64,000 nucleotides of DNA, from positions 31,081 through 95,080 of the forward strand of contig JBHLLO010000002.1 in NCBI GenBank assembly GCA_048885535.1, given 5' to 3'. The DNA comes from Candidatus Hermodarchaeota archaeon (GTDB taxonomy: Archaea > Asgardarchaeota > Lokiarchaeia > Sigyniarchaeales > SOKP01). The notes beneath the pieces are model-generated. The model did no database searches and was not told where the DNA came from. It saw only the letters and a list, made by a program, of their open reading frames with translations. Shown here piece by piece: positions 8,802 to 12,695 of the stretch (its first letter is position 1; each line of letters begins with the position of its first letter). The translations under genes were made by a program, and so were the position numbers.

Positions 8802-8940
8802 TTAACTCAGCTGTTAACTAGTCTTATAGTTTACTAATAATATTAAATGCTTATTTAATTATAATCTTAATTAAAATTCGAAATAAGAGATAAGAGTTAA
8901 TTGTTCCTAAATGTTAAAAGATTTTTAAGTGAAAATAAAA

Positions 8941-9405
8941 TTAACTTGGTGTTTTTCGTTTATTAAAAAGTTGTTTAAGTTCACTCATTATAGCTCCTCT
9001 CAAAGTTATTGGACTAGCAGGTCGAGCGGATCCTGGACCTCCAGGTGGACCTCCAGGGGGCGGTGGTGGACCTCCAGGGGGTGGACGAGGACTTCCTGCA
9101 GGTGTACCACTGGGTGGACCTCCAGGGGGTGGAGGAGCACTATTTGGAGCTTTTGGTGCGGATACTATAGGCGCTACGGTACCTCCAGTTGACTTATAAA
9201 TAGCTATTTCGTTACTCAATGTATTAACTTTAGTTTCTAATGTTGATAATTTTTGATGAATAGATGATAATGATTGATCTACTAAATCAGGAATTCTAAG
9301 AATCATAGACATCATTCTTTCGACAATATCTCCGAAAGCATTTAACTTTTCTTCGAGAGGAGCCTTTCTAGTTTCTTGCATGAAATTTGCGAATTCTTCT
9401 GCCAT
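8941..9405 (-). CDS. Coiled-coil + polyproline + amphipathic basic C-terminal helix protein (VASP/WASP-like architecture)
   Basis: Heptads LSSIHQKLSTLETKVNTLSNEI; APPPPGG/RPPPGGPPPPPGGPPGG; C-terminal LRGAIMSELKQLFNKRK. The CDS is secure; the function is inference. Confidence 0.75.
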   Translation of the reverse strand: MAEEFANFMQETRKAPLEEKLNAFGDIVERMMSMILRIPDLVDQSLSSIHQKLSTLETKVNTLSNEIAIYKSTGGTVAPIVSAPKAPNSAPPPPGGPPSGTPAGSPRPPPGGPPPPPGGPPGGPGSARPASPITLRGAIMSELKQLFNKRKTPS

Positions 9406-9547
9406 TTTTTTATCTCAATTTTTATAATTAAAGAATTATACAATAATTTTTCTAATAATTATATATCTGAATTATTTAATAAATTTAAGTCCGTGTGTAT
9501 TAAAACTATTTTGAGTAAAATTATAAAAAATATTAAAAAAAAAGAAG

Positions 9548-10180
9548 TTAACTTGATTTTGATACAGAATCTTTTATAACCATCCACAATTCATCTAATT
9601 CATTTCTCACTTCTAAAAATTGATGAATTTTTTTCAATAATACATCTCTAGCTATATCAAAGTCTCTTTGATAATCATTGAATTCTGCATCTAAAATTTT
9701 AAGTTTTTCCCCTTCAATTAGTTTATTTTTCATTTTTTCAACATTTAGAGCCTTTTTAATGACTGCATTTCTTTTATTGGCTACTTCATTTAACGCATCT
9801 GCAAATTCTATTTTTTTCTCAATAAAATATTCTTTCTTCAAAGCAAGGTTTTTAATTGCATCTATGTATTTATTATTCACTGCTATATATCCATCATTTT
9901 TACGAATGATATCTAAATATAAATTTATCTCTTCTTCTTGAATATTTGATTTTTTCTCTCTTACTAAAGTTTGCATTTGTTTAATTACGTCTCTAAAAGT
10001 CCGATTTAACATTTCTCTTCCTAAATTTGCTTTAGTAAGATTTTCTGCATATTTTTTTTGAGCATTGATAAGATCATATTGAGCTTTTGCCAGTTTTCTT
10101 ATTTGATTGACTAACTCTTTCTCTGTTCCTGCTAATTCAAGCTCATCCTCATGCGTAATAATAGGGCTCATTTTTATCAA
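9548..10180 (-). CDS. All-helical protein, BAR-domain-like
   Basis: ~210 aa with long amphipathic helices and no Pro after residue 6; basic tip KRNAVIKKALNVEKMKNK followed by EKLKILDAEF resembles SNX-BAR helices 2-3. Start may be the ATG at 10171. Confidence 0.6.
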   Translation of the reverse strand: MIKMSPIITHEDELELAGTEKELVNQIRKLAKAQYDLINAQKKYAENLTKANLGREMLNRTFRDVIKQMQTLVREKKSNIQEEEINLYLDIIRKNDGYIAVNNKYIDAIKNLALKKEYFIEKKIEFADALNEVANKRNAVIKKALNVEKMKNKLIEGEKLKILDAEFNDYQRDFDIARDVLLKKIHQFLEVRNELDELWMVIKDSVSKSS

Positions 10181-12542: not shown

Positions 12543-12695
12543 TTATTCTTTTTCTCCTAAGGCTTCCCTAATTTTTTCAAGTTCTTCCATTCTTTTCTTC
12601 TTTTCTTCTTCCCTTTTTCTCAGTTCTTCCACACTAACCTTTTGGAGAGTGACTCCCTTCTTAATCTCATCTTGTAACTCTTTATCAATTGGCAT
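12543..12695 (-). CDS. 50-aa microprotein with WH2/actobindin-like motif followed by a charged helix
   Basis: Manual translation MPIDKELQDEIKKGVTLQKVSVEELRKREEEKKKRMEELEKIREALGEKE*; SD-like AAAGGAG ~10 nt upstream; fills an otherwise empty 400-bp gap; below the ORF-track size cut-off. Confidence 0.8.
   Translation of the reverse strand: MPIDKELQDEIKKGVTLQKVSVEELRKREEEKKKRMEELEKIREALGEKE

Follow-up and report, generated by a model that had tools for sequence, protein, structure and literature searches.

WH2 and FAB motifs bind the hydrophobic groove of actin. The GAB and FAB motifs of human VASP are available in print (PMC10340426), and in Pyrobaculum the C-terminal helix of arcadin-2 alone binds the hydrophobic groove of crenactin with a Kd of 31 nM (PMC5173319). 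Asgard archaea form dynamic actin-filled protrusions and crawl (PMC13716822), and their filament nucleation machineries are still awaiting discovery (PMC9433394). In the portions of the literature consulted, profilins and gelsolins are the only recognised Asgard actin regulators, and no family composed of a coil, an arm and an end helix is described there. Co-immunoprecipitation with Lokiactin of L. ossiferum enriched one profilin, five gelsolins and an ARF GTPase, which is specified only in the supplement; a pair of proteins with a BAR domain was recovered too, below significance (PMC13716822). Loki profilins have been reported not to bind a VASP polyproline peptide, whereas a Heimdall and a Thor profilin bound it weakly (PMC8410842, PMC9433394). 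Polymerases of the formin or Ena/VASP type are assigned by a 2025 preprint to the more complex migration machinery of metazoans and amoebozoans.

The protein P0001 is encoded on the minus strand of the window (the whole stretch of DNA analysed, 64,000 nucleotides). Judged from its sequence, it is a candidate archaeal actin regulator with the layout of a miniature actin-assembly factor. The initial annotation had described an open reading frame with N-terminal heptads, a Pro/Gly tract including GPPPPP and a C-terminal RGAIMSELKQLFNKRK, and all of these are present in the 154 amino acids of P0001. The heptad stretch LSSIHQKLSTLETKVNTLSNEI occupies residues 46-67, GPPPPP residues 112-117 and RGAIMSELKQLFNKRK residues 136-151. 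The proposed layout was also borne out, with an oligomerising-type helix, a proline arm carrying GPPPPP and a conserved basic end helix. The features of the gene and its upstream region are as follows.

8941..9405, minus strand: P0001 coding sequence, 154 aa, a single ATG-to-stop open reading frame with N-terminus MAEEF
9367..9402, minus strand: short N-terminal helix, residues 2-13, with an AEEFxxF motif (AlphaFold2)
9190..9357, minus strand: long helix, residues 17-72, a single helix in AlphaFold2 (pLDDT 91-97)
9013..9189, minus strand: disordered linker, residues 73-131, without predicted secondary structure (pLDDT 44-57)
9031..9138, minus strand: Pro/Gly tract, residues 90-125, with APPPPG, RPPPG and GPPPPPG units (read directly)
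8953..9012, minus strand: C-terminal helix, putatively for docking, residues 132-151, with a LRGAIMSELKQLFNKRK core (AlphaFold2, pLDDT 70-84)
9475..9489, minus strand: promoter-like element CTTAAATTTA(t/a)TAAA, lying roughly 85 nt upstream of the start codon and unchanged in all 10 intergenic regions aligned
9548..10180, minus strand: conserved upstream neighbour, a 210-aa all-helical protein, on the same strand and directly upstream

An open reading frame on the opposite strand (8929..9192, 87 codons) mirrors the Pro/Gly codons and is regarded as spurious. The AT-rich CTTAAATTTA(t/a)TAAA element is probably the gene's own promoter.

The AlphaFold2 model of P0001 was made with an alignment of 39 diverse family members. 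It places helices at residues 2-13, 17-72 and 132-151 and disorder at 73-131, and its pTM of 0.34 is the kind of value expected for a chain predicted to be extended. The long helix contains a conserved N-module (EEKxxxFGDIVE...IPDLVD) and a heptad coil at residues 46-70, whose a and d positions are L, I, V or M nearly throughout. This helix is probably an oligomerisation and targeting module. When the family profile was compared with the PDB, the top matches (the best 60 of 323) were generic and mostly trimeric coiled coils such as autotransporter stalks, Lpp, sigma-1 and spike HR1, with a best E-value of 1.5e-5. The long helix probably oligomerises as a three-stranded coil.

The same coil had been likened to BRK1/HSPC300. 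The N-terminal helix might share true homology with CCDC53 and BRK1/HSPC300, small three-stranded coils of the eukaryotic WASH and WAVE complexes, which would make P0001 a subunit of an archaeal nucleation-promoting complex and would overlap with the explanation preferred below. An ungapped alignment of the N-module with the N-terminal part of Pfam CCDC53 (profile positions 5-50) is obtained for 3 of 12 long-form members, which come from another Asgard family and are described below, and for 4 of 39 short-form members. The best of these matches, in one member, scores 25.5 bits (E 2.1e-5), the cut-off being 24.6, but no single stretch of that member passes on its own. P0001 itself has no match to Pfam CCDC53, nor do 44 of the 51 members; the proposed resemblance survives as a borderline likeness in seven of the 51. 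Sub-threshold Pfam matches of the short-form members are mostly to coiled-coil families, with HSBP1 in 5 of 39, a point in favour of such homology together with the trimeric PDB coils. Against it, more members match unrelated coiled-coil families (Baculo_PEP_C in 27 of 39, NPV_P10 in 13 of 39) than match CCDC53 (4 of 39), the best 60 PDB matches include no chain of WAVE or WASH, and short coiled coils yield spurious similarity. Common ancestry with these eukaryotic coils is given a low probability on this evidence.

P0001 is a free-standing member of a real, strongly conserved pan-Asgard family. A word-indexed search returned 197 relatives at E<=0.01, and an exhaustive HMMER search of 1.84 billion representatives returned 101 at E<=0.001. 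The named relatives are all labelled 'hypothetical protein' and come from Promethearchaeota, Lokiarchaeota or Thorarchaeota MAGs. A genome census with a profile of the 39 diverse members as query found family matches in 339 of 400 genomes of the phylum, in 82 of 90 high-quality genomes and in 81 of 85 genera. For one Asgard family this general profile matched 15 of 31 genomes, and a family-specific query matched 27 of 31. Both the N-module and the tail, as the end helix is also called here, were detected by HMM in 175 of 220 retrieved proteins. P0001 fits this unnamed family well, with E-values of 1.4e-32 for the N-module and 5.3e-16 for the tail. Its members have a conserved N-module and a conserved C-terminal helix with a variable linker between them, which is 11-78 aa long in the 175 members, and the family tail stops a median of 2 residues short of the C-terminus.

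Purifying selection is strong on both the N-terminal module and the C-terminal helix. Pooled Nei-Gojobori dN/dS values from 17 orthologues (136 pairs), for which dS is near saturation, are 0.06 for residues 1-43, 0.19 for the coil at 44-72, 0.23 for the linker and 0.08 for the tail. The first 43 and last 20 residues are nearly invariant among 34 close relatives, including strictly invariant A2, E4, F5 and F8, whereas the coil and linker vary. Strict invariance across the 39 diverse members is limited to E142 and K144, with P124, P129, R136, L143, L146 and F147 kept at 90% or more. The variable positions of the tail helix (141, 145 and 148) lie on one face. The conservation of the C-terminal helix, on which the initial annotation had made its proposal depend, thus extends across the family.

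Kinship with Ena/VASP or WAVE proteins, which had also been proposed, found no support in the searches. A Pfam scan of P0001 gave no match above cut-off, and EVH1/WH1, WH2 and VASP_tetra had no match in P0001 or in the 39 family members scanned singly. The Pfam WH2 model (PF02205) had no match at E<=10 over the whole genome. Chains of VASP, WAVE and WASH are missing from the best 60 of 323 PDB profile matches, a PDB phmmer search with P0001 returned no usable match, and a search of the ESM Atlas brought up no named cluster, only uncharacterised ones belonging to the family itself. P0001 lacks the L-K/R-K-V motif of the GAB, the WH2-like G-actin site of VASP with its KLRK core, and its tail has no significant sequence match to WH2, VASP or any actin-binding family. 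On these tests, membership of P0001 in the Ena/VASP, WH2 or WAVE/WASH families is unsupported at the level of sequence.

G+C content rises to 58% in the island formed by the Pro/Gly tract, against about 25% in the rest of the window. At least five consecutive prolines occur in only 6 of 18,887 six-frame open reading frames of the genome, and proline makes up 3.6% of the proteome (long open reading frames of the genome). Since the tract is such an island and polyproline is rare in this genome, its Pro/Gly composition is kept up against mutational bias. Runs of at least five prolines are found in 100 of 119 close Loki-type relatives as opposed to 17 of 56 diverse relatives, several of which have linkers rich in Ser, Thr, Gln and Lys without polyproline. 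A copy of the module fused to an Arf GTPase has a short linker without polyproline in 29 of 29 same-genus full-length orthologues read. Beyond the close Loki-type relatives the tract behaves as a variable linker, which goes partly against the initial proposal. With polyproline frequent in close Loki-type relatives, much less so in diverse ones, and lacking in the GTPase-fused copy, the ancestral role of the Pro/Gly segment is, as read from these sequences, that of a flexible arm. A profilin-binding role may be at most a Loki-type addition, and any such role must be squared with the reported failure of Loki profilins to bind polyproline.

The C-terminal helix was said in the initial annotation to share the hydrophobic/basic spacing of the VASP FAB helix, and this spacing is indeed found. 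Aligned without gaps to the human VASP FAB site, the tail agrees in residue class at 11 of 15 positions, namely a Gly, two hydrophobic residues, a Glu, one hydrophobic, two further hydrophobic and three basic residues. The corresponding class pattern, G-x-h-h-x-E-h-x-x-h-h-x-B-B-B, has the P0001 tail as its only match in 18,887 open reading frames (1.83 million residues, six-frame) and no match in 20 shuffles, values that measure rarity and not kinship because the pattern was derived post hoc, with both sequences already seen. A shortened pattern also matches the tail of an Arf-like GTPase of the genome. The tail HMM matches exactly 2 of the 18,887 open reading frames, P0001 and one Arf-like GTPase. 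The C-terminal extension of the genome's 202-aa profilin candidate was considered as a further copy of the tail on the basis of likeness by eye and was rejected, the tail HMM having no match to it at E<=10.

A long form of the protein (269-332 aa) is present in 27 of 31 genomes of one other Asgard family. It is homologous to P0001 in the N-module (hhalign 94.4%, E 9e-8), and its arm contains two or three conserved units of a helix and an L-x-K-V/A motif. The long form also has a tail-like helix inside the chain that ends in KRK, an acidic stretch containing a Phe and, at the end, a second tail-like helix. This end helix, which is homologous to the tail of P0001, is followed by acidic and not basic residues. 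L230 in the second motif and E261 in the tail-like helix, both invariant, are separated by 31 residues, as are L235 and E266 in the GAB and FAB of VASP; the count is that of the long-form reference sequence, from which orthologues differ by a few residues. The WH2 model does not match the long form and a PDB phmmer search with its repeat region gave 0 matches, so the GAB/WH2-like motifs remain a resemblance.

A basic helix at a C-terminus could also be a membrane-targeting amphipathic helix of the MinD or FtsA type, in which case P0001 would be a membrane tether and the same helix would anchor the Arf-like GTPases to which it is fused. The C-terminal position agrees with such a role, as do a HeliQuest-type discriminant of 1.63, a net charge of +4 and a single arc that gathers six large hydrophobic residues. 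The hydrophobic moment, however, is only 0.33, a value attained by 22% of random 18-mers from the genome's open reading frames, and the acidic E142, invariant with K144 across the 39 diverse members, is unusual for a lipid-binding helix. The occurrence of the tail on small GTPases, which need membrane anchors, and the 210-aa helical protein adjoining the gene within one family would suit a membrane tether. The acidic residues after the homologous end helix of the long form would not. With the variable positions 141, 145 and 148 on one face while E142 is invariant, and with acidic residues after the long-form helix, docking on a protein fits better than lipid binding, and membrane targeting is considered improbable.

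The N-module and end helix are portable and are also carried by small GTPases. P0182 is an Arf/Gtr1-like GTPase with the whole module, comprising N-module, coil and end helix. The same three parts are found in the genome's own 408-aa Arf-like GTPase (Pfam Arf, 80.3 bits), which ends in ...VLDELKQLFDKKK. Its full-length relatives are present throughout the order, and the tail is kept in all 29 of the full-length same-genus orthologues read. Ras-family GTPases with the N-module are represented by P0187 and P0178. The N-module is also joined to gelsolin domains: it precedes one in P0144 (Loki 2DGel 7whg_G, E 9e-11; human gelsolin, about 2e-5), follows one in P0158, and lies within P0341, which combines a Rab-like GTPase, the N-module, gelsolin and a Zn ribbon. 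The fusions thus tie the N-module, not the tail, to actin-binding domains.

Fusion to GTPases can also be read in another way. The end helix may dock on a different conserved partner, such as the MIT domain of Vps4 (with a MIM1-like tail), a small GTPase or the 210-aa neighbour, and P0001 would then be a membrane-traffic or ESCRT adaptor. The presence of the tail on Arf/Rag-like GTPases speaks for this. ESCRT-III proteins present their MIM motifs at the very C-terminus, behind a disordered arm, and the tail of P0001 is placed in the same way. The gene block of P0001 points in the same direction, as it has no actin, profilin or gelsolin genes. The 408-aa Arf-like GTPase has PAP2, TFIIB and acetyl-CoA hydrolase genes in its neighbourhood and no actin, profilin or gelsolin genes. 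Within one family, moreover, the P0001 gene adjoins the 210-aa helical protein. Among 80 related loci, 77 have this neighbour directly upstream of the family gene and on the same strand, with a median gap of 130 nt, and in the other 3 the contig ends. It has no Pfam match above cut-off, and FCH/F-BAR appears below threshold in 3 of 17 of its members.

Several findings count against a partner of this kind. The whole 15-kb block is syntenic in the related loci (radical SAM in 73 of 80, Elf1 in 72 of 80, Pelota-like in 69 of 80, and others), and the 210-aa neighbour does not lie within 7 kb of the family gene in any of 10 distant loci from 10 other families, including families of the same order and class. 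The pairing is hence a family-level feature; the neighbour cannot be a universal partner, and the idea of a general two-gene machine was rejected. In an AlphaFold2 model of a natural Arf-GTPase fusion the tail does not pack confidently against the GTPase, which is a weak counterpoint since coil and tail have pLDDT 34-59 and the model therefore says nothing on the docking site. Actin is instead the partner suggested by the gelsolin fusions and by the long form with its GAB/WH2-like motifs. Docking on a partner other than actin is, on balance, rather unlikely.

The best-supported reading takes P0001 for an oligomeric adaptor that docks on Lokiactin through its end helix; it is tentative, and we give it a probability of roughly 0.4. 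In this proposal an oligomer of the long helices would hold several end helices out on flexible arms. Each end helix would dock in the hydrophobic groove of Lokiactin with its hydrophobic face (L135, I139, L143, L146 and F147), which E142, K144 and the KRK end flank. The resulting multivalent actin-binding adaptor could tether or bundle filaments or help to elongate them, and small GTPases that bear this module or bind to it may control its action. The GPPPPP runs of Loki-type members might in addition recruit profilin or profilin-actin, which is the weakest step of the proposal. Actin docking is favoured by the FAB pattern, the fusions to gelsolin domains and GTPases, the GAB/WH2-like motifs of the long form, the precedent of arcadin-2 and the ARF GTPase in the Lokiactin co-immunoprecipitation. 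Actin as the partner is also supported by the near-universal presence of the family in a phylum that universally has actin, and the invariance of the tail fits a conserved partner; Asgard actins are 80-95% identical to one another. Docking on actin is opposed by the lack of a match to any actin-binding family, the lineage-specific polyproline, the profilin binding data, the lack of actin genes nearby and the main text of the Lokiactin co-immunoprecipitation study, in which no protein of this kind is named (PMC13716822).

A near-universal and constrained protein with a VASP-like layout is a concrete candidate to be placed alongside Lokiactin and Loki profilin. If P0001 binds actin, multivalent actin factors with proline arms and their coupling to GTPases would predate eukaryotes. 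If it binds Vps4 or membranes instead, it would define a new pan-Asgard adaptor motif. In the broadest interpretation, the family would supply the actin-assembly factor that Asgard archaea have seemed to lack, and the eukaryotic factors would have grown from it; it would unite a trimer-type coil related to CCDC53 and BRK1, proline-rich arms, a FAB- or connector-like helix for the actin groove and control by small GTPases. Gains of WH2/GAB-like motifs in particular lineages would then foreshadow the VASP EVH2 and the WASP-family V-C-A before eukaryogenesis. So far-reaching an interpretation is a long shot.

P0001 can be compared with several known systems. In the composition of its parts it resembles the EVH2 and proline-rich region of Ena/VASP, with which P0001 shares a probably oligomerising coiled coil, a GPPPPP-type region and a short helix that follows the FAB residue-class pattern. 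The long form adds the GAB/WH2-like L-x-K-V motifs and the 31-residue GAB-FAB spacing. Unlike Ena/VASP, P0001 has no EVH1, no GAB and no detectable sequence kinship, and its coil is N-terminal and probably three-stranded, whereas that of Ena/VASP is a C-terminal right-handed tetramer. The connector helix of the WASP family has a pattern similar to the P0001 tail. As in WH2 and WASP V-C-A tails, a proline-rich region is followed at once by a short amphipathic helix that ends in basic residues, but P0001 lacks the L-K-K-V/T motif that follows the helix in WH2. With CCDC53/WASHC3 and BRK1/HSPC300 it has in common that it is a small protein with an N-terminal trimer-type coil.

Two archaeal systems complete the comparison. 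The tails of Asgard Arf/Gtr1-RagA-like GTPases have the same N-module, coil and end helix; these fused copies have a short linker and no polyproline, whereas P0001 is free-standing and has a 59-residue Pro/Gly arm. Arcadin-2 (PDB 5LY3), which is likened to P0001 by layout only, has a core, an unconserved and unstructured linker and a small conserved C-terminal helix. It belongs to another phylum and serves another actin, and it relies on a tryptophan that the P0001 tail does not have. Arcadin-2 is a sequestering depolymeriser, whereas the proposed oligomeric display of end helices by P0001 would more likely tether or bundle filaments.

Gene order around the gene for P0001, the 154-aa family protein, was compared over 80 related loci, and its surroundings in the window contain the following conserved features.

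9548..10180, minus strand: all-helical protein of 210 aa, directly upstream of the P0001 gene
9475..9489, minus strand: invariant AT-rich 15-nt element, CTTAAATTTA(t/a)TAAA, within the 130-nt gap 5' of the P0001 gene
7095..8801, minus strand: ORF of 568 aa, directly downstream of the P0001 gene
5212..6312, minus strand: protein of 366 aa, with a sub-threshold match to COG3_N
12543..12695, minus strand: microprotein of 50 aa with WH2-like residue spacing

The 210-aa protein is encoded directly upstream of the P0001 gene in 77 of the 80 related loci; its identity ranges from 43 to 89%, and its conservation exceeds that of P0001. Its Pfam matches, to FCH (3/17) and Talin helical bundles, are all sub-threshold, and in other Asgard families it was not found near the family gene. 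Between the two genes, the 15-nt element is followed about 30 nt downstream by a second conserved box, TATAATTATTAG. The 15-nt element resembles a promoter, implying a leader of some 50-60 nt.

Downstream, the 568-aa ORF is found in 56/80 related loci and gave no match in a Pfam scan. Since Elf1 lies directly after the family gene in about 22 related loci, the 568-aa gene is an insertion confined to some members of the clade. The 366-aa protein is conserved in 65/80 loci; its match to COG3_N (Golgi tethering complex subunit) scores 22.9 bits against a Pfam cut-off of 27.9. Locus L026 has complete Loki-type synteny, yet its sequence record is titled Nanopelagicaceae bacterium, and it is probably a mis-binned contig.

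The 50-aa microprotein was detected by tblastn in 48 of the 80 loci. Across 14 aligned orthologues, L7, I11, G14, L17 and K19 are invariant and V20 is retained in at least 90%; these positions show canonical WH2 spacing (L...I..G..L.KV), and a charged helix comes after them. The Pfam WH2 model gave no match to it at E ≤ 10.

The family module, or in the 291-aa ORF a weak match to its N-module, also occurs in longer proteins, for which the reference loci are as follows.

L134:1498-2460, minus strand: long form of the family, with 11 orthologues (L135-L143, L146, L147)
G000:C24 11990..12862, plus strand: source-genome ORF of 291 aa
G000:C29 4427..5653 (= L148), minus strand: source-genome Arf/Gtr1-like GTPase of 408 aa, with the P0001-family module at its C-terminus

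The long form (269-332 aa) is present in 27/31 genomes of one other Asgard family and contains APNLSAAP-type repeats, an acidic stretch with Phe, two tail-like helices, and two or three GAB/WH2-like L-x-K-V/A motifs. The 291-aa ORF carries a proline-rich tract at its N-terminus and a zinc ribbon at its C-terminus; it also has a Gln-rich coiled coil, and its coil matches the family N-module HMM weakly (E 0.006). In the 408-aa GTPase the N-terminal domain is helical, and the family N-module, coil and end helix lie at the C-terminus; full-length relatives are present in the order. P0341, a metagenomic protein of 438 aa, is a three-way fusion of a Rab-like GTPase, the family N-module and a gelsolin domain, with a zinc ribbon. 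Its residues 186-438 share 68% identity with P0144, a relative joining the N-module to a gelsolin domain, and its GTPase part matches Rab8A/Rab43 (E about 5e-33).
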